A DNA stretch of 64,000 bases from Candidatus Dojkabacteria bacterium. Lineage in GTDB: Bacteria; Patescibacteriota; Dojkabacteria; JAFGLO01. How positions within the stretch are numbered: the first letter of the stretch is position 1; each line of letters starts with the position of its first letter. The notes below the pieces were generated by a model. The model was given only the letters and a program-made list of their open reading frames with translations. It was not told where the DNA came from and made no database searches. The DNA lies in assembly GCA_016927995.1 (NCBI GenBank), contig JAFGLO010000011.1, positions 391 through 64,390 on the forward strand. The letters run 5' to 3'. Position numbers and translations under genes: made by a program. Shown here in pieces: positions 358 to 59,804 of the stretch.

Positions 358-471
358 CCAGTAGGGACAGGTTTCTAACCTGTCCCTACTGGACATGGTT
401 TTCGAACCTGTCCCTACTTGGACATGGTTTTCGAACCTGTCCCTACTGGATATGGTTTTTAACCTGTTCCT
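358..471. repeat. Perfect 16-bp-stem hairpin followed by about 3.5 direct copies of a 28-29-bp unit
   Basis: The hairpin is ccagtagggacaggtt-tcta-aacctgtccctactgg. The repeated unit is aacctgtccctac(t)tgg(a/t)catggtttt(c/t)g. The array sits between the ABC exporter stop codon (459-461) and the rplS start (292). Confidence 0.8.
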
Positions 472-20378: not shown

Positions 20379-20464
20379 ACTTCTACGTTAACATGTGTAA
20401 AAGTGTGTGTAAAGTCCTGAAGTAAAGAATTATTTATGACCTGTCCGTTGGTAGAACGGCTCTA

Positions 20465-29510: not shown

Positions 29511-30116
29511 ATGAGATACGTTGATTTAAAGACAAAACTGAAAGAAATTGTTGTATTTAGTCTTAACGATATAAGACAATGGGATCCTTCTTTCTATAGA
29601 AATCGGTTAATTGAATGGTTAGATAAAAGATATATAATCAGATTACGTCGAGATAGATATATGTTTTCTGATACTGATATCTTTGAATCTAGGCTTTTTC
29701 ATATAGCGAATCGAATATATTCTCCTTCTTATTTATCACTTGAAACGGCATTATCTTATTATGGACTTATTCCGGAAACTGTTTATTCTATAACCTCAGT
29801 TACCACAAGAAAGACAAACGAATTTGAAAATAATTTGGGGAAATTTATGTATAGAACGGTAAATTCAAACTTATTTTGGGGTTATGACATAGTGCATGGC
29901 TCTCAGGTTGCAGAAATAGAAAAGTGCATTTTAGATTATTTTTATTTGAATCCAAATATTGATAATGAATCTGATTTTTTTGAACTAAGGTTTAATGGTG
30001 AAGATTTTTTGAAAAGATACTCAAAGGAAAAGTTTAATAAATATCTTAAAATTTTTGATAATAAGGCATTAAATAGTAGAGTAGATAAATTCATGAGGTT
30101 TTTAAAAAATGCTTGA
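29511..30116 (+). CDS. AbiEi-family antitoxin (second copy, divergent orientation)
   Basis: It contains SYLSLETALSYYGLIPE, paralogous to the 28546..29154 gene. Confidence 0.7.
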   Translation: MRYVDLKTKLKEIVVFSLNDIRQWDPSFYRNRLIEWLDKRYIIRLRRDRYMFSDTDIFESRLFHIANRIYSPSYLSLETALSYYGLIPETVYSITSVTTRKTNEFENNLGKFMYRTVNSNLFWGYDIVHGSQVAEIEKCILDYFYLNPNIDNESDFFELRFNGEDFLKRYSKEKFNKYLKIFDNKALNSRVDKFMRFLKNA

Positions 30117-30882
30117 TATTAAAGATATTGCAAAATATTTTGATGGAAGCCAGTATATAAGTCCTCGACATATGCTGAGGGAATATTTGCAGTATAAGAT
30201 CCTAGATCTATTTGTAGATAGTAAAATTGGTAATAAAATATCATTTCTTGGAGGTACGTGTATTCGAATTGTACATAATAGTTTTAGATTTTCAGAGGAT
30301 CTGGACTTCGATAATTTTAGTTTATCTTATGAGGAATTTATTGAAGCTTCAAAAACAATAAAGCGAGGTTTAAGCCTGGAAGGATTTGAAGTTGAAATCA
30401 GAAATATCAAAAAAGGAGCATATCATTGTAATATTAAATTCCCAGAATTACTTTATAAAAATAAACTTACTCCATTGCAATCAGAAAAGATTCTGATTCA
30501 AATTGATACTTTATCACATGGCTTTACCTATAAACCCGATGTATTTTTACTTAATAAGTTTGGTGTTATAAGAAATATTTTAGTTACACCTACTGACATT
30601 CTTTTAGCTCAGAAAATTTACGCATTGTTTAATAGAAAGCGTCCAAAAGGTAGGGATTTTTTTGATGTGATTTTCTTATTAGGTTTCACAAAGCCTAATT
30701 ATGAGTATCTTGATTACAGACTTAATATTAATAAGCCGGTTGATTTAAAGGGGTACATTTTAGAAAAAAGTGAAGGTTTAGATTTTAAAGCTCTTGGAAA
30801 GGATGTTTCTCCATTTTTATTAAACTTAGAGGATGTAAGAAAGGTTGAAAGGTTTAGGGATGTGATTGGGAGTGTTTTATAG
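30109..30882 (+). CDS. AbiEii-family nucleotidyltransferase toxin (second copy)
   Basis: It contains FLGGTCIRIVHNSFRFSEDLDFD. It overlaps the upstream antitoxin by 8 nt. Confidence 0.75.
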   Translation: MLDIKDIAKYFDGSQYISPRHMLREYLQYKILDLFVDSKIGNKISFLGGTCIRIVHNSFRFSEDLDFDNFSLSYEEFIEASKTIKRGLSLEGFEVEIRNIKKGAYHCNIKFPELLYKNKLTPLQSEKILIQIDTLSHGFTYKPDVFLLNKFGVIRNILVTPTDILLAQKIYALFNRKRPKGRDFFDVIFLLGFTKPNYEYLDYRLNINKPVDLKGYILEKSEGLDFKALGKDVSPFLLNLEDVRKVERFRDVIGSVL

Positions 30883-32125: not shown

Positions 32126-33121
32126 TTAGCCAAGAAGAAGTTTAAGCTCTTCGTATAGTTTATCGTTTAGCTCAAGTTTTCCTGATTTTAGGCAGGCCTG
32201 CCTAAGTTTTTGCGATTGCTCTCCTGGATAAAATATCTCTTTTACGCCTTTTTGCTTTGGAGAATTCTTAACTTCATTTATTAAAGATTCAACATCAGCT
32301 TTAAAGTCTTTTATGGATCGAAATATGGTTGGATCTATAAGAATAAAGAAAGAACCCCAGCCGCCTTTAATATTGTAACCGCATCGGGAGGTTGTTAATG
32401 CTCCCCCAAGGATTTCCACAATAAATGCGATTCCCGAGCCCTTGTGATCGGCAATAGGTAGTAACCCACCTTCCATTGATGCTTCGGGACTATTTGTTGG
32501 GTTCCCGTCTTTATCGATTGCAACGTTATCGGGTATTTCCTTTCCTTCGGCCTTTGCGAGAAGTAAGTGACCCCATGTTATTTTGCTTGACGACATGTCT
32601 AATATCAAAGGTATCCCGTTTGTTGGAATTCCAACGGTAAATGGATTTGTTCCAAAGATTTCTTTTATTGAGCTAAATGGTACAAGTCCACCCGGTGAGT
32701 TATTGAACCCGATAAAAATAATGTTATTTTCGGTGGCTTTGCGTGCATACTGTCCGATTAATCCCGAAATTGGTGCTGTATTTGTTACCCCAACGGCAAC
32801 AATTCCAGATTCTTTTACTTTGTTAAGTCCTAATTCAAGTGCTTTATTTATAACATAAAGGCCTGGTTTCTTTTGTCCGTTAACTAATATTGATACGGGT
32901 GTTTCTTTTTCTATAAAGATATCTTTTCCGCCTACAATGATTTTACCCTGCTGAACTTTTTCTATTAAAACGGGTATGCGTATAAAGCCGTGTGTTTTTT
33001 TGTTTGTGAGCTCGCCTTCAAGACAATTTTCGATACAGTACTGTGCTTCTTCTTCTGAAAATCCGGTTTTTGTCAATATTTTGGTTCCTAGGTCTGTTGC
33101 TTCTTTTATTGATATGATCAT
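32126..33121 (-). CDS. Malate/L-lactate/sulfolactate dehydrogenase family (Ldh_2) oxidoreductase
   Basis: The N-terminus reads MIISIKEATDLGTKILTKTGFSEEEAQYCIENCLEGEL...THGF and the Ldh_2-family architecture follows. Confidence 0.7.
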   Translation of the reverse strand: MIISIKEATDLGTKILTKTGFSEEEAQYCIENCLEGELTNKKTHGFIRIPVLIEKVQQGKIIVGGKDIFIEKETPVSILVNGQKKPGLYVINKALELGLNKVKESGIVAVGVTNTAPISGLIGQYARKATENNIIFIGFNNSPGGLVPFSSIKEIFGTNPFTVGIPTNGIPLILDMSSSKITWGHLLLAKAEGKEIPDNVAIDKDGNPTNSPEASMEGGLLPIADHKGSGIAFIVEILGGALTTSRCGYNIKGGWGSFFILIDPTIFRSIKDFKADVESLINEVKNSPKQKGVKEIFYPGEQSQKLRQACLKSGKLELNDKLYEELKLLLG

Positions 33122-33166
33122 GGATAATGGTTTTTATATTAGCTACTTTTCGCTTAGAACACGTAA

Positions 33167-34180
33167 TTATTTAGTAAGCTCGATGACTTTTTGCCAGATT
33201 TCGTCATCAACGTCAACAGTTCCTAATTCGGTTGCTTTTCTTAATCGTTCAAGATTATTATCTCCAGGTACAAGAACCGTTTCTCCTTTTTTAGGCTTTT
33301 GATTCCTTATAACTATATTAAACTCCGATACTTCTTTCTTAAATGAATCTGTGGAATTAAATGCATTAATATCAATCACGATTAAAAACCCGCCGTGTTC
33401 TTCATTTACATAGGTTGGATTCATTTTATTACTTAATTTTGCCCCAACCAAAGCTCCTGTCATTACTTCAATAAGGTAGTTAATGTTATACCCTTTATAA
33501 TTTGCTCCCATTGGAAGAATATTTGAAGTTCCATCTTCGGCTAAAGCTTTGTTTACATCCCTTGTTACATTTCCCTCGCAATCAACTGCTGAATTTTCAC
33601 GCAGTTCTTTATTTTCTTTTTTACAGTTACGTATTTCAAAGTATGGAATTTGAGAAGTTGCCATGTCTATAACAATCTCTCCTTCATTTGCTGGGAAAGC
33701 GTATGAAATTGGATTGGTTCCTAAAAGTCCTTGTGTTCCGTTAAATGGGATAACTCCTGATGGACCTCCATTATATCCAGCAATGGCAAAATACCCTCTT
33801 TTGGCAAGACCTTGAGTCCACGTGTGAAGCGTATGCATTCCTCCTGAGTTATCAAGTCCTAAAATGGAAATACCTGTTTTTTGAGCTTTTTCTATGAGTT
33901 TGTCATGAATCCATTTAATTTTAAAAGTCATTGGGAGGTTATGAAAATCAAGATGTAGTAAGCTTGGAAGCTCCTTTTTTACTTCTATTTCATTTCCTTT
34001 GTATTTTTCTTGTCGCTCTGTATCTGAAATAACTTCGTCTTTTAATACATTACATCTTGGATGTTTTCTAATGTATGCTTCAGATATTTCCTCTGCAAAA
34101 TATTTTGCCTCTTCTGATGAGACGTACTTAAGGGCAATTATTTGAAGATTAGTTTTTAGCTCGGTTATGCTTACTTGCAT
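33167..34180 (-). CDS. Ldh_2-family oxidoreductase (paralog)
   Basis: It has the family's HTLHTWTQG...GTNPISYAFP core. About 80% aa identity to the disrupted copy at 38.4-39.4 kb. Confidence 0.7.
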   Translation of the reverse strand: MQVSITELKTNLQIIALKYVSSEEAKYFAEEISEAYIRKHPRCNVLKDEVISDTERQEKYKGNEIEVKKELPSLLHLDFHNLPMTFKIKWIHDKLIEKAQKTGISILGLDNSGGMHTLHTWTQGLAKRGYFAIAGYNGGPSGVIPFNGTQGLLGTNPISYAFPANEGEIVIDMATSQIPYFEIRNCKKENKELRENSAVDCEGNVTRDVNKALAEDGTSNILPMGANYKGYNINYLIEVMTGALVGAKLSNKMNPTYVNEEHGGFLIVIDINAFNSTDSFKKEVSEFNIVIRNQKPKKGETVLVPGDNNLERLRKATELGTVDVDDEIWQKVIELTK

Positions 34181-34315
34181 TTTTAGTGAGGTTAAAACTT
34201 AGCTAATATGTTTTATTGTACATCCGTTACATGGATAATTAAACACACTAGAAGAGGACATATTTACAATGATTTGCGATATAATAGCAGGTGACGTTAT
34301 TTAAATGATGCTGGT

Positions 34316-34729
34316 ATGGCACTTTCAATCTTTCATTTGGATGGACAGGACATAGCTGTTAGTTATATTTCGGAGAGTGAAGTATTTTCTGGAGTTATTT
34401 GTGAGGTTTATACCATTCCTTCGGCTAATGGTAAATATGATCTTGGGGTTATTTATATAGATGCCGGTAAGGAAACTCCCCTACAGCGTGTTCTTAAGGG
34501 TAGCAAAACTGTAGAAGGACATATTAGTGGAAAAGGGAAACTTTTAATTAATCAGGGTTCGGACGACGAGGTGGTTTATGAAGTTAGCGATGATATGAGT
34601 GAGCCATTTCAGATTGAGGTTAAAGTTGGTCAAACTATGAAGTGGATTGCGAATCCGGAATCAAAGCTTACCGTTTATGAAATTTGCTACCCTCCTTATG
34701 AGGATGGTAGATATGAGAATTTAGAGTAG
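34316..34729 (+). CDS. Cupin-like small protein (hypothetical)
   Basis: It is predicted to be all-beta. A paralogous pseudogene lies at 36727. Confidence 0.4.
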   Translation: MALSIFHLDGQDIAVSYISESEVFSGVICEVYTIPSANGKYDLGVIYIDAGKETPLQRVLKGSKTVEGHISGKGKLLINQGSDDEVVYEVSDDMSEPFQIEVKVGQTMKWIANPESKLTVYEICYPPYEDGRYENLE

Positions 34730-35386
34730 CGTTGAGAGTGGGTTTAGTGATTTTACTTTTACAAAGACCGCCCGTTTAAAATATTGGTTGTCTGTTGAAA
34801 AGCAGATGATTTTTATACTATCTTTCGTTTGATTGATGATAGCTCTTTTGTATCCTGCTGAGTTGAAAAACGCCTCATGCTCTTCCGGATAGATAGTATA
34901 TCTCCATCCTATATCCACCATGTTATCAGTTATAAAATATGCTTTACCCTCCCACACAAACGTTGCTTCATTATTTTCAGGAGAATTTCTCACCTTAATT
35001 TGAAATTGATCTTCTTTCGAAAGAATGATCGTAGCATATGCTTGTGGTTTGCCTTTAAGAGAATAGTAATCCTTGAGGTTCTTGATTTCGCCCGTCTTTT
35101 TATCTTTCTCTAGGGTGTCAGTCATATATCCGAACTCCTCGTATTCCCCCTCCAGTAAAATGCGTTTCTTGATCTCCGAGAAGGCCGTGTAAATTTTTTG
35201 TGAGCCATCAACAGAAAGTGTAGTCAATATAGATAGCAAAATCACTCCAACTACTTTACCTGCGAAATTATCTTTATCCAAGGGATCACTAAATATAATG
35301 CAAGCAAGAAGACCAATAAAGACCAGTGATGTTCTCACAATGGGCCACCACTTGAATTTCCACAGTTTGAGTAATGTTTTTGCCAT
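34721..35386 (-). CDS. Hypothetical membrane-anchored protein
   Basis: It has two N-terminal TM segments and no known motif. Confidence 0.35.
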   Translation of the reverse strand: MAKTLLKLWKFKWWPIVRTSLVFIGLLACIIFSDPLDKDNFAGKVVGVILLSILTTLSVDGSQKIYTAFSEIKKRILLEGEYEEFGYMTDTLEKDKKTGEIKNLKDYYSLKGKPQAYATIILSKEDQFQIKVRNSPENNEATFVWEGKAYFITDNMVDIGWRYTIYPEEHEAFFNSAGYKRAIINQTKDSIKIICFSTDNQYFKRAVFVKVKSLNPLSTLL

Positions 35387-35464
35387 TCCTTATTTTTCTT
35401 GTTTATAGTTGTATTAATTGTCGTATTTTACTATAAACCACAATGGGAAACAAAAGAGAGAGAT

Positions 35465-36514
35465 TTAATCTTTGGACGACTTAATTTTTGTCTTTAGGTC
35501 ATCTTGTAGTTTCTTTATTAGTTGCTTTTCAAAGTCGCTTTCAATTTTTTGTGTTTTATTAAATTTAATATATTCAGAAATTGCTTTATTTTGAGCGATA
35601 TTCATTGAAATCGAGCCCTTCCCATCTAAAATCTTGTACTCATTAAACTCAAGAAACTTATCAACACTCTTAGCAAATTGTACCATTGTCAACGTTTTCT
35701 TGCTCTCAATTACGTTTTCAATATAGTCGAAGAAGCCGGAAACAGCTCGCTCAAGTTTTCTTATCTCTTTTTCTGACAAATAGTTCTTGGCAACCACTAT
35801 ATCGGATTTTAAAATACGTCCTTTGGGTGAATCTTTCCAAGTAGTTAAGCCCATGTATGGTTTCTTTTTATCGGCGTTAGAATGAATAATCTCTGCTGCG
35901 GTTTGTCCGGTTATAGCATAATGAAATTTGTTTTGAATCGTTGCAAAAAAGTCCTTTGTGATACGTGAGTTTGGATTGTAATCAATACTGCACTCCTGGA
36001 AAATGTCTGTGATTTGAAGATATATTCTACGTTCGCTTGATCGAATTGATCGGATACGCTCTAAGAGTTCTTTAAAATAATCCTTGCCGAAGTACCTGCC
36101 ATTACTCAACCTATCATCGTCCATTGCAAATCCTTTGATTATGTACTCTTTTAGTCGTTCTGTTGCCCAAATTCTAAATCTTGTTGCTTGTGAAGAGTTA
36201 ACCCTATAACCGACCGAAATTATTGCATCGAGGTTATAAAACTCGATTCTTCTGGAAACTTTGCGCATTCCCTCGTTTTGAACTATCCGGAATTTCCGGA
36301 TGGTTGAATCTCGTTGTAATTCTCCGCTTAAATATATGTTTTTTAAATGTTCGTTAATTGTTCTAACGTCAACACCGAATAGATCTGCCATTCTCTTTTG
36401 AGTTAGCCATATGTTCTCATTCGCAAAAAATACCTCCACCTTGATTTCTCCATCTGGTGCCGTATATAACAGGAATTCATTTAGTTCTTGTTTTATTGAA
36501 AGAGTATTCTTCAT
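35465..36514 (-). CDS. RhuM-family virulence protein
   Basis: The conserved core is RKFRIVQNEGMRKVSRRIEFYNLDAIISVGYRVNSSQATRFRIWATERLKEYIIKGFAMDDDRL. Confidence 0.75.
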   Translation of the reverse strand: MKNTLSIKQELNEFLLYTAPDGEIKVEVFFANENIWLTQKRMADLFGVDVRTINEHLKNIYLSGELQRDSTIRKFRIVQNEGMRKVSRRIEFYNLDAIISVGYRVNSSQATRFRIWATERLKEYIIKGFAMDDDRLSNGRYFGKDYFKELLERIRSIRSSERRIYLQITDIFQECSIDYNPNSRITKDFFATIQNKFHYAITGQTAAEIIHSNADKKKPYMGLTTWKDSPKGRILKSDIVVAKNYLSEKEIRKLERAVSGFFDYIENVIESKKTLTMVQFAKSVDKFLEFNEYKILDGKGSISMNIAQNKAISEYIKFNKTQKIESDFEKQLIKKLQDDLKTKIKSSKD

Positions 36515-36726
36515 TAATTTTGAAAATTTTTACGTAAATGCTTGTTAAAAGCCACTCCTGCCTTCTGTATTCTACTACAAACCACATCGAGAAACAAAAA
36601 GAGATTAAATAAAAGAAATAAAGTTTGTTATTTCCTACTGAATTTATTGCAAATTATTGTCAGTGGGTTTTGACTAGACACAATATACGATATAATAATA
36701 GCTGATGTTATTTAAATCACTCTTGT

Positions 36727-36988
36727 ATGACACTTTCAACCTTTAATTGGGATGGACAGGATAGAGTCATTAGATATATTTCGAAAAGTGAAGTAGTTCC
36801 CGGAGTTACTTGTGAGGTTTATACCGTTCCTTCCGCTAATGGTGAATATGATCTTGGGATTATTCGTATAGATGCCGGCTCAGAAACTCCCCTACAGCGT
36901 GTTCTTAGCGGATCCGGATTCAAAGCTTACTGTTTATGAAATTTGCTATCCTCCTTATGAGGATGGTAGATATGAAAATTTTGAGTAG
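36727..36988 (+). pseudogene. Cupin-like paralog with an internal deletion of about 190 bp and a frame break
   Basis: The N-terminal 55 codons and the last 25 codons align to 34316..34729. The middle is missing, and the junction (cttagcggatccggattcaaag) changes the frame. The upstream leader is also duplicated (34290-34330 versus 36700-36740). Confidence 0.55.
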
Positions 36989-37139
36989 GTTTGAATAAAA
37001 GGATTAACCAGGGCGGGCGCCTGTTCGCCTCTGGCGAGGAATCAGGCTTCGAACTTTTTTCAATCAAAAACCTCTTCTAAAGTCTTGTACATTTTTTTGC
37101 TGTGACATTTCCCCATTTAGGATGTTCAATCATTCTTCT

Positions 37140-37478
37140 TTATTTTATATACATCCCTACATTCAAAAAATCGATTAGCCAGAAAAGATTTACAACATAC
37201 TCTGTTATTTTTAGTATTGTTCCTTGAAAAAAGCTAGGATTATGATAGTTTAGAATAATACTACTTACGAGTATAACAATTGGAAGATCAAAAAATAATA
37301 TGTTCCCCCAAAAATATTTTTTAGCTTTATGAGACAGTTGTAACGAATATAATCCTGAACCATGAGAAAGAGTAAGTGACAACAGGAATGGTCTTGATAA
37401 TATTTTCGAAGAATATTCTTTTTGATTCATATAATTGCTATCACAGTTAAATTTTAAGGAGATATTGTTCCTACTCAA
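37140..37478 (-). CDS. Hypothetical small membrane protein
   Basis: It is a hydrophobic 112-aa ORF in a cassette bounded by att-like repeats. Confidence 0.3.
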   Translation of the reverse strand: MSRNNISLKFNCDSNYMNQKEYSSKILSRPFLLSLTLSHGSGLYSLQLSHKAKKYFWGNILFFDLPIVILVSSIILNYHNPSFFQGTILKITEYVVNLFWLIDFLNVGMYIK

Positions 37479-37675
37479 CTTGGAGAGTGGAACTTACCTT
37501 GAGCCCTTCGATATTGCGGTCAAAAACAGACATGTGTTCGTTAAACGGGGCGGAACCATTAGCCTCAATTTTACTTAAAATTAGTTTAGAGTGAATCCGT
37601 TTGGGAGATACGAGTTTCCAAAGGCAAGTTTTAAGGTTAATTATCTGTTTTTATTATAATAATATTTTTCTGTAT

Positions 37676-38230
37676 TTAAGAAATCCATGTCGGGATCGAT
37701 AAAAAAGGATCTTTGTCGTGTTGAATTCTATAATGTTTCTGTCCAGATTCACACATTGGTCCACAATGAATATGTCGCTCTTCAACCTCGACTTCTTCTA
37801 CATATCTATCAGATACTTTGTCATATACCTTTACAGTAGATAGTTCAATAAGATCTCCGATATAATAAATCGAGATTTCCGATATAATTATTTCGTTTGT
37901 AGTTAAGCCTTGCTCTTCAATATATTGTTTTATGTTTTTTGATTCTTGACTATTATACTTAACCTCGTTTAAGTAGTTAATAACGTCTGAGTAATTAAAT
38001 GTTAAAATTACGTATTCAGATTCATATATCACCGTTTTGATTTCATCAACAGGATTTAAGTTAATTGTTTTATAGGTGACTTCTATCTTGTTTTTTATTT
38101 TCACCAAATAATTGGAAATAAAAAGAACTCCAAGCAATATAAAAAGAAGAATGAAAGCTATAGCTAGCAATGGGAAGTATTTATGCGACGAAAATTTGGG
38201 GAGTTGAGACTTCATAACTGCATTTGTCAA
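37676..38230 (-). CDS. Hypothetical membrane-anchored protein
   Basis: It has an N-terminal TM. The C-terminus contains HIHCGPMCESGQKH. Confidence 0.35.
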   Translation of the reverse strand: MTNAVMKSQLPKFSSHKYFPLLAIAFILLFILLGVLFISNYLVKIKNKIEVTYKTINLNPVDEIKTVIYESEYVILTFNYSDVINYLNEVKYNSQESKNIKQYIEEQGLTTNEIIISEISIYYIGDLIELSTVKVYDKVSDRYVEEVEVEERHIHCGPMCESGQKHYRIQHDKDPFLSIPTWIS

Positions 38231-38354
38231 ACACTTAAAACGGAGCGGACGGGATATGGCTCGAACTTTTAGTTTTGATTTTATGAAAGAATGGTGTATT
38301 GAGAATCCGTTTTGGAGGTATAAGTTTCCGGAGTTGAGTTTTAATTATGATTAT

Positions 38355-39367
38355 TTAGTTATCTAGAATTTTAACTTTATTCCAAATGTCTTCTTCAATT
38401 TCAACCATTCCAGATTTATTAACTTCGTCAAGTCTATTAAGATTATTATCTCCTGGCACAATGACATGTTCTCCTTTTTTTGGTCTTTGTTGGCGAATTT
38501 CTCTGTTGAACTCTGAAATTTCATTTTTAAAAGATTGAATACTGCCGAAAGCCTCAATATTTATTACTATAATGAATCCTCCATGATCCTCATTTACATA
38601 TCCTGGATCCATCTTGTTGCTCAACTTAGCCCCTACAAGAGCTCCAGTCATTATTTCAATTAGATAGTTTATATTATACCCTTTGTAATTGCCGCCCATA
38701 GGTAAAATATTTGAAGTACCGTCTTCTGCTAATGCTTTATTTGCATCTCTAGTTACATTTCCTTCTGTATCAACCGCTGAATTTTCTCTTAAATCTTTAT
38801 TATCTTTTTTACAATTACATATTTCGAAATATGTGATCTGGGATGTGGCCATGTCAACGACGATTTCTCCTTCTGACGTCGGGAAAGCGTATGAGATCGG
38901 ATTCGTTCCAAGTAATCCGCAGGTTCCATTGATGGGGACAACACCCAAAGGACCCCCATTATATCCTGCTAATGCAAAATAACCTCTCTTTGCAATTCCT
39001 TGTGTCCATGTATGAAGTGTATGCATTCCACCTGAATTATCAAATCCAAGAATACTAATCCCTGTTGTACTTGCTTTTTCTATGAGCGTATCGTGAATCC
39101 ATTTTATCTTGAATGTCATTGGAAGATTATGAAAGTCTATGTGTAATAGGCTGGGCATATCTTGTACGATTTCTATTGCATTCATCTTATATTTTTCTTG
39201 TCGCTCTGTATCCGATAGGATCTCATCTTTAGTACATTTGATCTAGGATATTTTCTGACATAAGCTTCGGATAGTTCTTTTGAAAAGTACTCAGCTTCTT
39301 CTTCGGAAACATATTTTAGTGCTACTTTCCGTAGTTTATCTTGCAACTCATCTAATTTAACTTGCAT
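38355..39367 (-). pseudogene. Ldh_2-family paralog disrupted by a 1-bp deletion (split into 61-aa and 276-aa ORFs)
   Basis: Nucleotide alignment to the 33167..34180 paralog shows one missing base around 39215-39240 (aaagatgagatcctatcgg versus aaaagacgaagttatttcag). It could instead be an assembly error. Confidence 0.55.
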
Positions 39368-40706: not shown

Positions 40707-40885
40707 ACAGTTGATTATATCATTTTTAAAAGTATTTATGCTCGAACTTTAAATACTCCCTTAATAACAGTAGAAGATTGATATATCCGTGGATGTAAGT
40801 TTCATATTAAGGAATTCGGCTCGAACCGAGAAAATGCTTATTTATCAACAAGAAATCGTCATTTTTTAGAGGTATGTTCGTTAAA

Positions 40886-40960
40886 CGGGGCGGACGGGGA
40901 TCGAACCCGCGACCTTCCGCGTGACAGGCGGACGTTCTAACCAAACTGAACTACCACCCC
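40886..40960 (-). tRNA. tRNA-Asp (GTC)
   Basis: Folded by hand: acceptor GGGGUGG/CCGCCCC, D arm GUUC..GAAC, anticodon stem UCCGC/GCGGA with loop CUGUCAC, T arm GCGGG-UUCGAUC-CCCGU, discriminator G. No CCA is encoded. Confidence 0.85.
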
Positions 40961-41106
40961 ATTTTGTGGTAACAGTATTGTAAAAGAAAATCACCAAATC
41001 CGCAAGATATGCTAAAATAAAAATAGCTAAGGTAAGTTCAGCTACATTTGTATAGACCCTGTTTTTAAGTAACAAAGGGTTAATAAACCATTTATCCGAT
41101 ATCGGT

Positions 41107-41676: not shown

Positions 41677-41753
41677 GACGTGAAATTGTGAATAGTAATA
41701 TGGGCGTGCCTGCCTGTCTATCGACAGATAGAGACTCGGACCTATATTTCATA

Positions 41754-41827
41754 TGGGCGTGCCTGGACTCGGACCAGGGACCCCAGTCTTATCAGGACTG
41801 TGCTCTAACCAGCTGAGCTACACGCCC
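41754..41827 (-). tRNA. tRNA-Ile (GAT)
   Basis: Folded by hand: GGGCGUG-UA-GCUC AGCUGGUUA GAGC-A-CAGUC CUGAUAA GACUG-GGGUC-CCUGG UCCGAGU CCAGG-CACGCCC-A. Confidence 0.85.
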
Positions 41828-42002
41828 CTAACGAAATTAGGGTGTGGCAAACCTTTTAAGCTGCCTGTCCGCCTCTGGCGGAAGCTACACGCCCCTAACG
41901 GTGATTACTATTATCGGGACTTGTGTATTTTATGGGAATTCTTGCGAAAGTGCAAGCAGAGGTGGATTAAGTTAATGAGTATTTCACCATTACATATCTT
42001 AA

Positions 42003-46813: not shown

Positions 46814-47069
46814 CTTAGGTTTGATTTAAGTAACGGAATTGTAACAGCGATTGTTTTATCTCGCAAGTAGGGGTGGGTTTAGACCCGCACCCCAATTTCG
46901 AACACATTGTTGGATAATACATTTAAAAATGGGGGATACGTTTAAACCCAAACATGAATAAAAAAGTGCCTTTGTATGAATTCTTGGGGATGTCTTCGTG
47001 TCGGTTTAAACCTGTCCCTACAATGAGAATAAGGAATATGATAAAATTCGTATGTTGACTTATGTTAAC

Positions 47070-47156
47070 GCCGAAATGGTGGAATTTGGTAGACACGCCG
47101 GCCTTAGGAGCCGGTGCCCTTTACCGGGTGTGTGGGTTCAAATCCCACTTTCGGCA
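47070..47156 (+). tRNA. tRNA-Leu (TAG), type II with long variable arm
   Basis: Folded by hand: GCCGAAA-UG-GUG..CAC-anticodon stem CCGGC/GCCGG with loop CUUAGGA, long variable arm, T arm GUGGG-UUCAAAU-CCCAC, acceptor 3' UUUCGGC, discriminator A. Confidence 0.85.
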
Positions 47157-47342
47157 CTTTCATCCTTAGTTGTTGGTGGGTTATAGAGTCAGTCCTTTTC
47201 TTTCCGCTGTGATCATAGTTATTACAGGCACTAGAATAACTATGATTGTATTTAATTATCTGTAAGTATCCAGAACAGTTTGTATTTCGTATTATCTTTT
47301 GCGGTCATGATGGATGGTAGCAGATTCTCTCTTCATAAGCAA

Positions 47343-51663: not shown

Positions 51664-51976
51664 GCAGTAAACAGTAGGGATTAAATGGTAATTAAATCCG
51701 ACAGGATCGGTCGGGACGTGTTTCTATCTTATTCCTAGTTCATATATCTAGACGTATTTTTTGATTAGCCAGCAGTGAGAATCGAACTCAGCGTGCTACC
51801 TCTTGCACGCTATCTTTCCCGAATCTAATGTACGGGAAGAATTTAATAAGAAACGGAATCGGTTCAAGTAATTAATAGTAATAAGCCGGCAATCGGAATT
51901 GAGCGAGCATCCTTGGCGAGCTACGCAAAGTCGATGGCAATCAACTGAAACAGAAACTGAGTTCGTAATGGATATT

Positions 51977-52049
51977 AGCCGGCAATCGGAATTGAACCGA
52001 TGACCTACGGTTTACGATACCGCCGCTCTACCAACTGAGCTATGCCGGC
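51977..52049 (-). tRNA. tRNA-Thr (CGT)
   Basis: Folded by hand: GCCGGCA-UA-GCUC AGUUGGUA GAGC-G-GCGGU AUCGUAA ACCGU-AGGUC-AUCGG UUCAAUU CCGAU-UGCCGGC-U. Confidence 0.8.
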
Positions 52050-52227
52050 CCCAATAATAATCTGTCGGTCATAGCGAACTTGTCCGCCTCTGGCGGAAGC
52101 TATGCCGGTGAAAGTGCAACTAGACGAACAAAAAACAACGTTACTAATGATTATACTATTGAATCTGTCATTTTGCCAGAATAGATGATTGACTATCATG
52201 GCTATCATCGGCTATAATTAGTTATCA

Positions 52228-52761
52228 TCATAACCAGGGGTGCCTAAGGTTTCGACCGACCGCCAGTCCTGGTTTTTTCTTTTTATAGCCAAACGACCCT
52301 ACCTGTTTATCCAACCTAATTATGTACGTGTCATACTTTCTTGGCAGGCAAGAGTACTTATGATTTGGTGTAAGTACTTTGAGTAATTTCCCTTTCTCCT
52401 TCAGATATTGGATAAGACAAGAAAAATCTCCATCACCACTTACTATTACAGCTTTTTTATAATTGTTGTATTCAATTGCTGCTGCATGTAAAACTAACTC
52501 TGCATCGACATTTCCTTTAACCGCCTCTCTTTTGTCAGCGAAATATCGTACGGTGGGTTTAAATACCAGAATGAATCCTGCCAACTGTAATGTTGTATAG
52601 AGTTTTTGATTATTAGGTAACTGTCCGATAAACATAAAAGCCATTGATACATTGTATTTATTTTTTAGATATAGTCGGAATCTCGGGTAATCAATTTTCC
52701 ATCCAGTAGACATAATTCCTAGGTATAAATTCTGGCTATCGATAAAAGCATAGTTATCCAT
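52228..52761 (-). CDS. NYN-domain (LabA-like, PIN-like nuclease fold) protein, tandem copy A
   Basis: It contains FIDSQNLY...NVDAELVLHAAAIEYNNYKKAVIVSGDGDF, with the Asp residues typical of NYN/LabA. The last 25 codons read through the hairpin of the antisense module. Confidence 0.65.
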   Translation of the reverse strand: MDNYAFIDSQNLYLGIMSTGWKIDYPRFRLYLKNKYNVSMAFMFIGQLPNNQKLYTTLQLAGFILVFKPTVRYFADKREAVKGNVDAELVLHAAAIEYNNYKKAVIVSGDGDFSCLIQYLKEKGKLLKVLTPNHKYSCLPRKYDTYIIRLDKQVGSFGYKKKKPGLAVGRNLRHPWL

Positions 52762-52904
52762 GCTTTAATTTTACGCGACGGCATGACCGAAAAGAAATGG
52801 CGGAATCTGTCGTTTTGCCAGAATACGAGATTGAATTAGTCAATAATAATTGTTATAATTAAATGTTTATGATAAGGGGACTACCAAAATGGATTTTATT
52901 CCAT

Positions 52905-53100
52905 GCGGGAATGCCCCTTTTTTCTTTTCAACTTATCCTTTAACCTTGCCAAGGAAATCAAGTATGGTGAATACTTTTTTAACAATGAGGAATATTTCTC
53001 GTTTGGAGTGATTATATTTTTTAGTTTGTTTTTCCTCTCCAAGTATTCAATTAAACAAAAGAAATCCCCATCACCCGAAATAATGACGGCTTTATCATAA
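52905..53100 (-). pseudogene. Truncated NYN-domain gene copy B (C-terminal ~64 codons only)
   Basis: Reverse translation gives EYNNYDKAVIISGDGDFFCLIEYLERKNKLKNIITPNEKYSSLLKKY... with no N-terminal half. The listed + ORF 52903..53100 is its antisense. Confidence 0.5.
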
Positions 53101-53137
53101 TTGTTATATTCTATTTTGCCAGAATAGAAGGAAAGCT

Positions 53138-53232
53138 TTACGTTACTTATTGGAATCTGCTATAATGGATTATCACGATGAGAGGACTACCAAAATGGAC
53201 CTCGATCCATGCGGGAATTCCTCTCTTTTTTT
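53138..53232 (+). ncRNA. Candidate small RNA: sigma70-like promoter, then a 7-bp-stem hairpin plus T7, convergent with and abutting the 3' end of NYN copy C
   Basis: The promoter is TTACGT, a 17-bp spacer, then extended -10 tgcTATAAT (53161-53166). The hairpin 53180-53225 is gagagga...tcctctc with an inner atgga/tccat stem, followed by ttttttt. Homologous modules lie at 52831-52923 (TTGAAT, 17 bp, tgtTATAAT; hairpin gggga..gcccc + T6) and at 52189-52278 (TTGACT...TATAAT; hairpin ccagg..cctgg + T7). Confidence 0.35.
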
Positions 53233-53242
53233 AAAAAAGCGG

Positions 53243-53725
53243 CTACTTCCCTTTCCTAAGTTTTTCCTTTAACTCACCCAAAGACACAATATACTTACTA
53301 TATTTTTTAAGAAGGGATGAGTATTTTCTATTGGGTGCAATTACTTTTGCCAGCTTTTTATTCTCTGCTAGGTACTCTACAAGACAGTAAAAGTCACCAT
53401 CACCCGATACTATTACAGCTTTATCATAGTTGTCTTTTTCCATCATTGTGTGTAAAACCAGCTCTGCGTCAACATTTCCTTTGTAGGTTATCTTGTCAGC
53501 CTTTTTTATTTCTAGGACTTTCTTAAAGATAAGGATATATCCCAATTCTTGTAGTTCTTTATACAGTTTTGCGTTTGATTCTATATAGCCTATGAATAAA
53601 AATGCTGTTTTAACGTTATATTTGTTACGGAGGTACAGTCTAAATTTTCCGTAGTCTAATTCCCATTTATCGGCTTTTGTTCCTATGTATAGGTTTTGGC
53701 TGTCTATGAATGCATGATTTTTCAT
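53243..53725 (-). CDS. NYN-domain (LabA-like) protein, tandem copy C
   Basis: It contains FIDSQNLY...NVDAELVLHTMMEKDNYDKAVIVSGDGDFYCLVEYL. Confidence 0.7.
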   Translation of the reverse strand: MKNHAFIDSQNLYIGTKADKWELDYGKFRLYLRNKYNVKTAFLFIGYIESNAKLYKELQELGYILIFKKVLEIKKADKITYKGNVDAELVLHTMMEKDNYDKAVIVSGDGDFYCLVEYLAENKKLAKVIAPNRKYSSLLKKYSKYIVSLGELKEKLRKGK

Positions 53726-57063: not shown

Positions 57064-57844
57064 ACGCATCCTTCTGGAAAAATACTTTGGAATTCCAATC
57101 TGGTTCGAACGAAACAAAATCTTTTCCGGAGGCGATTACGAGGTTACAAAACTTTCTGACATCGTACTTTCCGAAATAAACACTCAAACAATTAACAGTG
57201 AGCTTATGTATCCGGAAACAATCGGCACAAGATATTCGTTAAGCGTTAATGAAAATTCCTTGTCTCTGGTTCAGAATTCTTTAAAAAACGAAATCATCAT
57301 GTTACATGGGACCCTTTTAGGAATAGAATACGCAAAAACCACCGGAAGAAGAGCTACCGGAAAGTATTCCACCTTGATTCAGGTTATGTATGGATCTGCA
57401 TTCATAATTTTACACAACAGCTTCTTTGACAAGGCTGAATTTACCTTTAAGACCGGCTCTGTCTATATAGTAAAGGTAAAGGTCGGACAGTGCTTCGTTG
57501 TTCCACCTAATATGGGATATACTGTCGTAAATTCACAACTATCTCCACTTGTATTTCACAAAATAACGGCAAAAGATTCTGTCGAGGAACCTGTATTTGA
57601 TAACCACAAGGGCGCAGCTTATTATGTAATTTATAAAAACAGCAAACCGGAAAAGGTTATTAATCCGTACTTTAGAGATGTGTCAAAACCTAAAGAGATC
57701 TCCTCGATTAAGTTAACATCGACTTTTTTCAATAAATGTCTTACAATTCCAGATATATTTAACTGTCTAATGTGCAAAGACCTTGATCCGAAGTTAAGAT
57801 TTGTTCTTGGAATTGATGAATTTGTTATCGACGACATGTTCTAA
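57056..57844 (+). CDS. Hypothetical protein (possibly cupin-fold)
   Basis: It is a 262-aa ORF with no confident motif. Confidence 0.4.
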   Translation: MNKRILLEKYFGIPIWFERNKIFSGGDYEVTKLSDIVLSEINTQTINSELMYPETIGTRYSLSVNENSLSLVQNSLKNEIIMLHGTLLGIEYAKTTGRRATGKYSTLIQVMYGSAFIILHNSFFDKAEFTFKTGSVYIVKVKVGQCFVVPPNMGYTVVNSQLSPLVFHKITAKDSVEEPVFDNHKGAAYYVIYKNSKPEKVINPYFRDVSKPKEISSIKLTSTFFNKCLTIPDIFNCLMCKDLDPKLRFVLGIDEFVIDDMF

Positions 57845-57868
57845 AAAGCAAAGTAGAGACATTTCCCT

Positions 57869-57946
57869 GTTTCAATGGTTTAAAAGACAAGTCAAAGACA
57901 TGTCTCTGTTTCAATGGTTTAAAAGACAAGTCAAAGACATGTCCCT
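57869..57946. repeat. Two tandem 39-bp units (gtttcaatggtttaaaagacaagtcaaagacatgtc[t/c]ct) plus a partial third copy upstream, each ending in the palindrome AGACATGTCT
   Basis: Seen in the sequence. The ATG of the likely downstream start codon (57939) is inside the last unit. Confidence 0.75.
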
Positions 57947-59804
57947 ACTTAGGGGTTTTACTATTTCACTGCTTTGTTACTTCACTATTTCACTGTTTAC
58001 CACTCCTGTCTTTGCCTCGTCGGGAATTCAAAAGCAAATGAGTATAACCGTTGATGTTAAAGAAGCCGGCGATATAAATATTTCCATGCAAACATCATTC
58101 TTTATTACGGAAGGAGTATCATTGCTTCGTGAATATAACTTGGCGTTTACAGAAAAAACATTTACTAATTTTGCCGCAGTGTCAGCCGGAGGGGAAGCAC
58201 TTGACTATTCAATAAAAGAAAACGACGACAACACATTGATAACAATCAGCCTTCCGAATATTCGATTAAATCCAGGCGGAAGTTATGCAATTAACGTCTC
58301 TTATACGGTTCCTGCGGGGCTTGAGTCAATTGGAGGTATATATAAATTATTGGTCCCAGTATTTAATACAGAGAACACAACAATAACATCTGTACTTGTT
58401 AGGTATCCTTCAAACATTGGAAATCTACTTTATTGTTCTACAGAATGTACAACCACAAATACAAACGAACTAACAGAAGTCTACTTAAATAACATCAAGT
58501 CAACAAATCCATTTATTCTTATTGGAAGTTCTCAGATATACACACTAAACCTTGTTATGGACGTTGAAAATAATTCGGCTCAGGTAAACAATCTAAATAC
58601 CTATATTCCAATAGAAAGCTGTACCCAGAAAAATATTGTAAACTTTTTTGCGCCGACACCAAGTTCAATTAGTACAGATATATATGAAAATAATAAGCTA
58701 AATGTTGTTTTAAATCCTTACTCGAAACAGATTATTCAATACAGTGGACAGGTACAACTTACTAGCAGTGTATCAAAATGTAAAGTGCCAACGGTTGCAG
58801 CACTTGATATCGAAGAGTTAACAAGATTAAGATTACTCCTGGAAACGTATTTTCCGAATTCAGATACTTCATTAGATCTAATTCAAAAATTTTACCAAAA
58901 GATTATATCGGAGGGCGAAATCAACGCTCAAACAGGACTAGAGAAAGATCCCGGCACAAATATTGAATTATTCTTAAAAGACGAACTACATATTTTTACT
59001 CAGCGGGAGCTTTTGGAAATGCTGCTTTTCGTATACTCTGCATTTGATTATCCTGCCTATATTTCTTATGGTTTTTTGTATCCTTACTATGTTTCGGAGC
59101 CTATTGGCGTAAACTATTCCTGGCTTACAGTATATGTAACCGATATTCCCAAAGTTGTCGATCCTTTCATGGAAATCCAAAGCGGGATCTCCGGTTTCGA
59201 CGTCAATTTGTTAGATAGAATTGTAATTTATAATACTCAACAATTATACGACCAAAGTTATTCCTGGAGAAATCTTGAGACAAATTTTGTTTCTATTGGC
59301 TACCAAAACTTTACAACAAATTCTAACTTGTACCTTACTGTAAACTTTCCTGAATCCGTACAAGCCGGTGTTTCACATACGGCAACATTGTCCGTCCGAA
59401 ATAATGGAAATACACTATTTAAGAATCTAGAGATATCAATCTTGTCTACAGAAGGACTATTATTTGAATTTTCAGATGATACGAATGTTATTCCATTACT
59501 TTTTCCGGGTCAAAGTATTACAATTCCGATAACAATTAATTCAACTAAAGGAACATTTTCTAAACTTCACGAAGTACTTGTAACATACACTGCCGATGAT
59601 TTTACCGGTCAAACACACACATACAGCATACTTGTCGAACAAAAACCAATAAATATTCTAATTGCTATACTTGTCACCGCGTGCATAGGCAGTGCGGGTG
59701 TTCTTGTTTTTGAAAGGGTGGTAAAATATTTTAATAAGAATAAAGGGGAAAAAACACAAACCCCTTACGACCCATTACTTGGATTTGGTTCAAAAAATGA
59801 TTAA
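57939..59804 (+). CDS. Secreted hypothetical protein with signal peptide and C-terminal TM anchor
   Basis: The signal peptide is MSLLRGFTISLLCYFTISLFTTPVFASSG. The C-terminal TM is NILIAILVTACIGSAGVLVF. The start is chosen after the tandem repeats. The ORF-track start at 57801 would translate the repeats. Confidence 0.5.
   Translation: MSLLRGFTISLLCYFTISLFTTPVFASSGIQKQMSITVDVKEAGDINISMQTSFFITEGVSLLREYNLAFTEKTFTNFAAVSAGGEALDYSIKENDDNTLITISLPNIRLNPGGSYAINVSYTVPAGLESIGGIYKLLVPVFNTENTTITSVLVRYPSNIGNLLYCSTECTTTNTNELTEVYLNNIKSTNPFILIGSSQIYTLNLVMDVENNSAQVNNLNTYIPIESCTQKNIVNFFAPTPSSISTDIYENNKLNVVLNPYSKQIIQYSGQVQLTSSVSKCKVPTVAALDIEELTRLRLLLETYFPNSDTSLDLIQKFYQKIISEGEINAQTGLEKDPGTNIELFLKDELHIFTQRELLEMLLFVYSAFDYPAYISYGFLYPYYVSEPIGVNYSWLTVYVTDIPKVVDPFMEIQSGISGFDVNLLDRIVIYNTQQLYDQSYSWRNLETNFVSIGYQNFTTNSNLYLTVNFPESVQAGVSHTATLSVRNNGNTLFKNLEISILSTEGLLFEFSDDTNVIPLLFPGQSITIPITINSTKGTFSKLHEVLVTYTADDFTGQTHTYSILVEQKPINILIAILVTACIGSAGVLVFERVVKYFNKNKGEKTQTPYDPLLGFGSKND

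Follow-up and report, generated by a model that had tools for sequence, protein, structure and literature searches.

The 64,000-nt stretch of contig JAFGLO010000011.1 of a Candidatus Dojkabacteria bacterium, referred to here as the window, harbors two tRNA genes that are each preceded by a 19-nt GC-rich hairpin element and flanked by partial copies of themselves, and it is this element and its wider distribution that are described below. tRNA genes were called by ARAGORN on the 64-kb window, with Rfam as confirmation. tRNA-Asp (40885-40961, minus strand) and tRNA-Leu (47070-47157, plus strand) were found by both programs, as were the intact tRNA-Ile(GAT) (41754-41827, minus strand; Rfam tRNA score of 66 bits when the region was searched alone) and the intact tRNA-Thr(CGT) (51977-52049, minus strand, reported by ARAGORN as 51976-52050; 69.7 bits). 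In the two tRNAs that were read, tRNA-Ile and tRNA-Thr, the CCA end is not encoded. The T-loop of tRNA-Ile reads TCCGAGT, with C instead of the nearly universal U at position 55.

The element, T-CCGCC-AGA-GGCGG-A-CAGG (with a CAAG tail at the Thr locus), possesses a stem of 6 bp (TCCGCC/GGCGGA) and a loop of 3 nt, and its predicted DNA fold has an energy of -6.2 kcal/mol (z = -4.0). A preliminary description of the same DNA had noted this hairpin with a stem of 5 bp (CCGCC/GGCGG), one pair fewer than is present, and had reported a 22-bp motif shared by the regions upstream of tRNA-Ile and tRNA-Thr. The 22-mer, TGTCCGCCTCTGGCGGAAGCTA, indeed occurs at exactly two sites, 41866-41887 and 52081-52102, with no third match in the window at up to 3 mismatches and 0 expected in shuffled sequence. 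As a unit, it is a composite of 17 bases of the hairpin element and the TAGCT of a partial tRNA copy, its final five bases (AGCTA on the plus strand) corresponding to tRNA positions 8-12 and lying outside the repeat. TAGCT at these positions is common to most tRNAs, and the 22 identical bases at both loci are thus accounted for by 17 bases from the element and five that are near-universal in tRNAs.

On the minus strand, the Ile locus reads ATCAC / CGTTAG GGGCGTGTAGCT / TCCGCCAGAGGCGGACAGG / spacer CAGCTTAAAAGGTTTGCCACACCCTAATTT / CGTTAG followed by tRNA-Ile, and it continues past the gene as TATGAAATATA / GGTCCGAGTC / TCTATCTGTCGATAGACAGG / CAGGCACGCCCA / TATTACTATT. The upstream hairpin (H1, TCCGCCAGAGGCGGACAGG, 41864-41882, minus strand), the same sequence as that present in more than 240 public loci, is abutted at the junction of tRNA positions 12 and 13 (12^13) by a partial copy of the tRNA 5' end (41883-41900, minus strand), which comprises 6 nt of upstream flank and tRNA nt 1-12 and forms an 18-nt repeat, AGCTACACGCCCCTAACG, in which 41816-41833 matches 41883-41900 at 18/18 positions (-6 to +12). 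The CAGCT after the hairpin (41859-41863, minus strand) equals tRNA-Ile nt 13-17 and may, on the slender basis of 5 nt only, mark a continuation of the 5' copy past the hairpin, analogous to the continuation that is clear at three loci in other genomes (L150, L062, and L076). Downstream of the gene, the partial copy of the tRNA 3' end is divided by a sibling hairpin insert of 20 nt (TCTATCTGTCGATAGACAGG, 41713-41732, minus strand), whose architecture is that of H1 (T, stem, loop, stem, ACAGG). The insert separates a 10-nt piece of the T-loop region (GGTCCGAGTC, 41733-41742, minus strand) from CAGGCACGCCCA plus TAT (41698-41712, minus strand; 41699-41712 = 41752-41765, 14 nt), and its removal exactly restores the tRNA sequence.

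The Thr locus follows the same plan, reading CCGGCATAGCT / TCCGCCAGAGGCGGACAAG / 29-nt spacer / tRNA-Thr / 74-nt spacer / TCAATTCCGATTGCCGGCT / TATTACTATT. Its hairpin (TCCGCCAGAGGCGGACAAG, 52079-52097, minus strand), which ends in CAAG rather than CAGG, abuts a copy of tRNA nt 2-12 (52098-52108, minus strand), again at 12^13; this copy repeats 52038-52048 over 11 nt (AGCTATGCCGG). The 3' partial copy, which extends from the T-loop to the discriminator (51884-51902 = 51977-51995, 19 nt, minus strand), is free of a hairpin. Directly after the discriminator of the outer 3' copies at both loci lies the 10-mer TATTACTATT (41691-41700 at Ile and 51874-51883 at Thr, minus strand), of which the whole window contains three exact copies. 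The flanking self-copies that the preliminary description had recorded are therefore present as claimed, with 5' copies that are exact over 18 nt at Ile and 11 nt at Thr and 3' copies of 19 nt at Thr and 14 + 10 nt around the 20-nt insert at Ile. The 3'-end direct repeats are situated 53-93 nt downstream of the tRNAs, and the element lies approximately 30-37 nt upstream of each intact gene. The spacer of approximately 30 nt between hairpin and tRNA gene is not duplicated at either locus; TATTAT occurs 4 nt before tRNA-Thr and TAATTT 6 nt before tRNA-Ile, and the spacer is presumed, to judge from its sequence, to supply the promoter of the intact gene.

A scan of the window for related hairpins, requiring a perfect 5-bp stem, a loop of 3-5 nt, and then ACAGG, returned 4 sites (20440-20459, 37020-37037, 41713-41732, and 41864-41882) against 0.21 in shuffles, none of 200 shuffles reaching four. 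Together with the CAAG copy at 52079-52097, the family has five members in the window, every one of them located on the minus strand. The differences between their stems are paired (CCGCC/GGCGG, TCGCC/GGCGA, CCGTT/AACGG, and CTATC/GATAG), and the tail is kept. The member at 37020-37037 (TCGCCAGAGGCGAACAGG, minus strand), in which the outer base pair is changed on both sides, is the variant already noticed near 37 kb, where it had been described as adjoining a tRNA-Asp-like repeat, and it lies inside a tRNA 3'-end-like repeat (family D13); that at 20440-20459 (CCGTTCTACCAACGGACAGG, minus strand) is intergenic, between two minus-strand open reading frames (ORFs). The element is not found at tRNA-Asp or tRNA-Leu of the window. 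The tRNA-Asp anticodon arm and a conserved 16S segment, GGCGGACGGG, were considered for their resemblance to the element and dropped, having only 8-11 bases in common with it.

Two further short sequences were observed beside the family. The 13-mer AACCTGTCCCTAC is present in 5 copies in the window against 0.09 expected, four of which (one inverted) belong to a tandem repeat of 28-29 nt at the beginning of the window (361-446), the fifth (47009-47021) being situated 49 nt upstream of tRNA-Leu; on the reverse strand it reads ...GGGACAGG, sharing a GACAGG tail with the hairpin family. A second hairpin, of 20 nt (CCTGCCTGCCGGTAGGCAGG), is identical in L117 (3170-3190) and L027, two unrelated Patescibacteria-type metagenome-assembled genomes (MAGs), where it lies inside partial tRNA copies beside the first hairpin, perhaps as a further representative of this class that is oriented the other way round.

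The element is widespread beyond the window. Exact-match scans of GTDB (18-mer TTCCGCCAGAGGCGGACA, one genome per species, 596 Gb) and of JGI metagenomes (CCGCCAGAGGCGGACAGG) each yielded at least 120 loci, and the counts and proportions given below refer to the matches listed. Approximately 17 chance matches to the 18-mer would be expected in 596 Gb, compared with the at least 120 loci found. A scan of IMG/VR with the 18-mer core gave 4 matches, all in GC-rich contexts, and the exact 22-mer was not found in viral contigs. By record title, the genomic matches from GTDB comprised approximately 47 Patescibacteria, 21 Bacteroidota, 15 members of the Ignavibacteria/Chlorobi group, 11 records labelled Gammaproteobacteria, and 7 members of the Planctomycetes-Verrucomicrobia-Chlamydiae (PVC) group, in addition to Zixibacteria, KSB1, Elusimicrobia, Dehalococcoidia, Terriglobia, and others. 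Nearly all sources are MAGs or metagenome contigs, together with one single-cell genome and one isolate, and several MAGs harbor 3-7 loci each. As some matches reside on contigs of 0.35-1.8 Mb (Zixibacteria, 355 kb; Ignavibacteriota, 933 kb; Bacteroidota, 1.8 Mb), mis-binning cannot explain this spread.

Across the 123 genomic 18-mer matches, conservation ends 1 base before and 2-3 bases after the core, with G at +19 in 86%. Across the 120 metagenome matches, obtained with a query without the leading TT, CCGCC is preceded by T in 71% and by C in 26%, CAGG is followed by C in 56%, and the remaining flank positions are uninformative. These sharp ends and flat flanks define the element as a 19-nt unit in unrelated surroundings. 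Approximately 90% of the roughly 258 distinct contexts lie away from tRNAs, some of them in coding genes, which is the distribution that the preliminary description had named as that of a generic repeat.

Within coding genes, the element occurs on either strand and is read as FSARGGQ, LPPEAD, LSASGG, or CPPLAE; from our own reading of its sequence, we take it to contain no stop codon in any of the six frames. ORFs spanning it encode TopA, DnaE, RecJ, and DnaJ, as well as Fmt, which fell below the 60-residue filter of that analysis. The clearest picture of an insertion is provided by GlyA (serine hydroxymethyltransferase [SHMT]) of locus L085, which carries 6 additional residues in a conserved block relative to a solved structure, 7 residues (SARGGQA) occupying a place that is taken by a single residue in all 24 closest homologues. 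The empty site reads CCATTT/CCGTTCGC and the filled site CCATTT/TCCGCCAGAGGCGGACAGG/CCTTCGCC, and a target duplication is absent. A second SHMT lineage (P0348), 68% identical, bears an insert at the same site, and the insert-bearing GlyA protein has entries in NCBI, ENA, and Logan alike. TopA (topoisomerase I) of L081 similarly has an extra stretch at the element site. Together with the scans, these comparisons show a discrete unit with sharp ends that is found in many phyla and has been inserted after T, without target duplication, in conserved genes.

In DnaJ, the signature S[AT][RQ]GGQ is present in 15/120 Patescibacteria homologues, and 14 of these share a single site within the G/F region. 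The older copies have lost the 5' arm and the compensating change is absent, a pattern that would be as expected for decaying insertions. DnaJ was also considered as a filled/empty pair and set aside as ambiguous: the site is Gly-rich, the lengths are equal, and the 96%-identical "empty" candidate is a decayed copy.

The immediate surroundings of the element are not random with respect to structure. It tips a larger hairpin, with at least 7 bp of complementarity between its flanks, in 24/248 contexts, against 0.5% when flanks were re-paired at random, and it is flanked by a direct repeat of at least 8 nt in 15/248 contexts (e.g., L006, L022, L096, and L131), against 0.7% in controls. L006, L022, and L096 contain tandem arrays with identical spacers. 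In six loci (L161, L137, L229, L172, L183, and L198), the hairpin tips a conserved multi-stem context, GGAGTAGC...AGCGCAGCCT-hairpin-TAAAGGCTGCTACTCC, whose stems show paired changes from one metagenome contig to another and for which Rfam gave no match; it may represent either a larger repeat or a new RNA.

Of the 258 unique contexts, 21 (approximately 8%) are tRNA-like, with the element at 12^13 in 11, in the D-loop in 6, and in the T-loop in 4. The 12^13 site is GCT^CAG, the D-loop site follows T16 and is always succeeded by GGGTCCGAG, and the T-loop site, 55^56, is TT^CGA; these copies, recognized by sequence signature, read in the sense orientation. The 12^13 junction recurs in unrelated genomes (L006, L041, L062, L107, and L150), and tRNA sequence resumes after the insert in several of the contexts (CAGTGGATA in L150, as well as L062 and L076), indicating that these are insertions into partial tRNA copies and not mere junctions. 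A target duplication was not seen in the T-loop and D-arm copies. The element is therefore shown to be enriched in exposed loops, both at the tips of hairpins and, in sense orientation, in tRNA-like sequence (D-arm, D-loop, and T-loop). The earlier proposal of a tRNA-targeting insertion near the D-arm is accordingly retained as regards insertion at 12^13 of partial copies, but not as regards specificity for tRNAs, given that some 90% of copies lie elsewhere.

A tRNA gene lies within 200 nt of 19/126 genomic matches, 16 of them on the same strand, compared with 0.5-3% of random sites by our own estimate. Self-copies were assessed for the 99 tRNAs in the fetched loci that had sufficient flank, a tRNA being classed as element bearing if the hairpin lay within 250 nt. 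An upstream copy of tRNA positions 2-12 was found at 7/28 tRNAs with the element and at 0/71 without it, the former figure leaving out tRNA-Thr of the window, for which the ARAGORN start is one base off. Downstream 3'-end copies, by comparison, were found at 2/28 and 5/71, respectively. The 3' copies, being equally frequent in both groups, therefore resemble ordinary attachment-site-type duplications, whereas the 5' copies, being confined to element-bearing tRNAs, are tied to the hairpin. As tRNA-end copies recur at other occurrences of the element, their presence beside it in the window is not a coincidence, a possibility that the preliminary description had entertained. In a Dojkabacteria MAG (L093, 3880-4100), an intact tRNA-Arg was observed between the 5' and 3' parts of another tRNA-like sequence; the stretches beside tRNA-Arg (ATCCCGCCA / TGGCGGGAT) are mutually complementary, and the 3' part has the hairpin in its T-loop.

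We consider it probable that the hairpin is a generic, widespread insertion-type repeat, i.e., a small non-autonomous mobile hairpin similar to repetitive extragenic palindromic (REP) sequences or miniature inverted-repeat transposable elements, and not a tRNA signal. The family to which it belongs, composed of a short stem, a loop of 3-5 nt, the complementary stem, and ACAGG, would behave as small non-autonomous insertions, moved in trans via a single-stranded intermediate by an HUH-like enzyme of the REP-associated tyrosine transposase (RAYT) or IS200/IS605 type. Insertion into an intact single-copy tRNA gene would presumably be lethal, so that only copies in redundant tRNA fragments would survive; an event in a transient duplication could be tolerated, the dead copy then being whittled down. 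Alternatively, insertion and local duplication of the 5' end may be coupled to each other.

Several observations weigh against this interpretation. All-against-all clustering of 2,224 ORFs from 120 genomic loci revealed no transposase or other shared protein family within approximately 4 kb of the element, the candidate clusters containing only housekeeping or lineage-specific families, and two inverted copies at L139 enclose only repeats and no gene. Identity across more than 10 phyla is unlike REP families, which are lineage specific. The interpretation does not account for the way in which the 5' copies are made: their repeat spans no more than 11-18 nt, and the spacer is not duplicated. 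The nearest homologue of the flanking protein-L-isoaspartate O-methyltransferase (PCMT) is 48% identical, too distant to supply an empty site at the tRNA loci. The DnaJ element takes the place of an equal-length Gly-rich stretch and adds no length; some copies may therefore come about by conversion and not by simple insertion. Furthermore, because the scans were exact-match only and comprise at least 120 loci each, the proportions reported above are rough.

One alternative is that the hairpin and the 5' self-copy are a functional part of the tRNA gene, either as a shared promoter or a processing leader that pairs with the tRNA 3' strand, two possibilities that the preliminary description had listed, or as a terminator or insulator. 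The shared orientation of the hairpin and its comparable distance ahead of the two tRNAs, together with the recurrence of the arrangement upstream of tRNAs in other Patescibacteria, would fit such a role, as would the minimum free energy fold of a co-transcribed leader, in which an upstream GGGCGUG pairs with the 3' acceptor strand as had been anticipated; the z-score of that fold is, however, only -2.4, and no T-run follows the hairpin. Moreover, tRNA-Asp and tRNA-Leu of the window do without the element, the partial copies vary in length and decay, the DnaJ copies decay without compensation, and the bulk of copies are distant from tRNAs, some of them in conserved coding sequence and on either strand, all of which renders this explanation very unlikely. 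A better, if still low, probability is assigned to the proposal that integrase-driven elements targeting tRNA genes left the partial copies as remnants of their attachment sites, with the hairpin as one end of such an element. The 3'-end direct repeats downstream of the tRNAs, the 10-mer TATTACTATT after both outer 3' copies, the tRNA 3'-end-like repeats between duplicated cassettes at 33-41 kb, and the 3' copies at the 5/71 hairpin-free tRNAs are all in keeping with it. Nevertheless, no integrase was present among the ORFs tested around the tRNAs, just 50-90 nt separate the repeats, integrase models give no 5' copies that end at position 12, and the hairpin occupies hundreds of sites with neither tRNA nor island; attachment sites may well explain the 3' copies, but not the hairpin or the 5' copies.

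Exact conservation across phyla, recurrence in structured contexts, and window variants that keep the stem by paired changes along with the ACAGG tail would also suit a conserved DNA or RNA binding site of a widespread cellular protein, recruited at many places and not selfish. That the element breaks conserved protein regions where close homologues have nothing, decays in DnaJ without compensation, and lacks both flanking conservation and an Rfam match makes such a site improbable. Quite improbable, too, is a route in which folded RNA receives the hairpin in its exposed loops (those of the tRNA elbow, of terminators, and of mRNAs) and the hairpin is then copied back into DNA, even though this route would yield partial, sense-oriented tRNA copies beside the parent gene. 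The sites after position 16 and at 55^56 adjoin residues 18/19 and 55/56, which are in contact in folded tRNA, and the sense orientation of the signature-identified copies, the preference for hairpin tips, and the restriction of 5' copies to element-bearing tRNAs are all compatible with an RNA target. However, no reverse transcriptase was seen near any copy, the Ile copy takes in 6 nt upstream of the mature 5' end, coding genes carry both orientations, and single-stranded DNA at the replication fork would yield the same loop preference. An artefact of library preparation or assembly, to which the predominance of MAGs and metagenome contigs might point, is scarcely credible: the assemblies derive from many groups and assemblers and include a single-cell genome and an isolate, the same insert-bearing GlyA recurs in the three resources named above, there are copies that have diverged or decayed, and to our knowledge the element does not resemble common sequencing adapters. 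As a speculative extension of the insertion-type repeat favored here, to which we attach only little confidence, a trans-acting machinery might write the 19-nt hairpin into exposed single-stranded loops across phyla, including the touching positions of the tRNA elbow, and create the 5' copies in the process, possibly via an RNA intermediate.

The gene content of the window is otherwise cellular and includes a Clp-type ATP-dependent protease, an ABC transporter, PCMT, Ldh_2 paralogues, and RNase HII, with PheS encoded on a Logan contig (L002) that overlaps the 3' part of the window. A phage origin was rejected on account of this content and of a megablast search against phage records without a match. 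The PCMT protein itself has a 100% identical entry from a Candidatus Dojkabacteria MAG, the next-best homologue being the one at 48% identity. The host lineage, Dojkabacteria, is part of Patescibacteria. Two proteins flanking the tRNA loci were each retrieved on one short Logan contig of the same sample, and each contig ends approximately 200 nt past the flanking gene on the tRNA-facing side. An AbiEii-type toxin gene (type IV toxin-antitoxin) is located at 30109-30882. Downstream of tRNA-Asp, the 32126-39185 region contains three Ldh_2 paralogues (one truncated) and long direct repeats (33360-33659 versus 38548-38847, 34272-34496 versus 36683-36907, and 34649-34735 versus 36908-36994); D13 repeats, which resemble tRNA 3' ends, at 37010, 38241, and 39549 divide its cassettes, and the region looks as if cassettes had been duplicated or inserted repeatedly. 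NYN-domain genes (52228-53725) lie immediately upstream of the tRNA-Thr locus as two full paralogues and a remnant, with intergenic repeats at 52871-52926 versus 53177-53232 and at 52161-52192 versus 52803-52834, and at 57836-57952 a 39-nt unit is repeated three times in tandem in the overlap of two plus-strand ORFs (repeat family D6).

If the proposed interpretation is true, a mobile-type repeat of 19 nt is identical in bacteria that are only very distantly related, including many uncultivated Patescibacteria whose genomes are tiny, sits in frame in essential genes, and marks rearranged tRNA loci. It would raise the questions of what moves the element, how the same sequence crosses phyla, and whether it has a part in the duplication and decay of tRNA genes in streamlined genomes. 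Were the loop-targeting, copy-making insertion also true, the hairpin would be the smallest known mobile element and would represent a new route of tRNA-gene rearrangement. In practical terms, the element breaks short-read assemblies at tRNA loci, as both Logan contigs end there, and it adds 6-7 residues to annotated proteins.

A description of the element was not found, by sequence or by topic, in the papers searched, and a search of the window and 20 loci against Rfam 15, at gathering and E-value thresholds, returned tRNAs and a single group I intron and nothing else. An array of the TIGR or CRISPR type was rejected, as the tandem copies have identical spacers and the box C/D layout (10.64898/2026.09.09.750476) is absent. 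The tRNA 3'-end direct repeats downstream of the Thr and Ile genes are reminiscent of the attachment sites of integrative elements, from which the loci differ in that no island lies between the repeats, no integrase was present in the tested ORFs, the 5' copies end at position 12, and the hairpin also occurs without a tRNA.

REPs, which at 21-65 bp are among the smallest known repeats (PMC3184786), and the related REPINs, mobilized by RAYT (TnpA-REP) transposases of the HUH Y1 type, offer a closer likeness, consisting of a short GC-rich hairpin beside a conserved tetranucleotide and of many dispersed, non-coding copies that occur singly or in tandem. The element, at 19 nt, falls just under the REP size range (PMC3184786). 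Its tetranucleotide is a CAGG 3' of the hairpin (CCTG at the 5' side on the other strand), whereas that of REP is a GTAG at the 5' side; REPs are extragenic, whereas the element also lies inside the GlyA, TopA, DnaE, RecJ, DnaJ, and Fmt frames and tRNA-like sequence; and REPs are species or genus specific, whereas the 18-mer of the element is the same in Patescibacteria, Bacteroidota, Ignavibacteria, PVC, Zixibacteria, and others. A RAYT gene is typically flanked by REPs, and none was seen within approximately 4 kb of the 120 loci or between the inverted L139 copies. IS608 enters DNA 3' to a specific short target that it does not duplicate, requires single-stranded DNA hairpins, and prefers exposed single strands. 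The GlyA insertion, after TTT and without duplication, recalls the ends of IS200/IS605 elements and their miniature derivatives, palindrome-associated transposable elements (PATEs). As to a fixed target of the IS200/IS605 kind, the element follows T or C in 97% of cases, and no longer fixed target was seen; IS200/IS605 elements have two different ends of tens of nucleotides each, whereas the element is a single 19-nt hairpin, and neither TnpA nor TnpB was found within approximately 4 kb of the copies. In its hairpin with a fixed tail, its duplication-free insertion after T, and its preference for exposed loops, the element would work in the manner of a REP or a miniature IS200/IS605-type element. 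It lacks several defining features of these families: it has no GTAG, it is neither extragenic nor lineage specific, and no linked transposase was seen within approximately 4 kb.

Rickettsia palindromic elements (RPEs) are palindromic selfish DNA found in frame in conserved genes as well as in non-coding regions, as cited in PMC3184786. The hairpin shares with them its in-frame palindromic insertions in conserved protein genes alongside those in non-coding regions. RPEs are approximately 100-150 bp in length and known only from Rickettsia, whereas the element measures 19 nt and spans phyla. The GC clusters of yeast mitochondria are small GC-rich palindromes in AT-rich genomes, are found in frame in genes, and have an unclear mechanism; they are organellar, 30-50 bp in length, and accompanied by a short target duplication. 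The element resembles them as a GC-rich palindrome inserted in genes and differs from them in being shorter and free of a target duplication.

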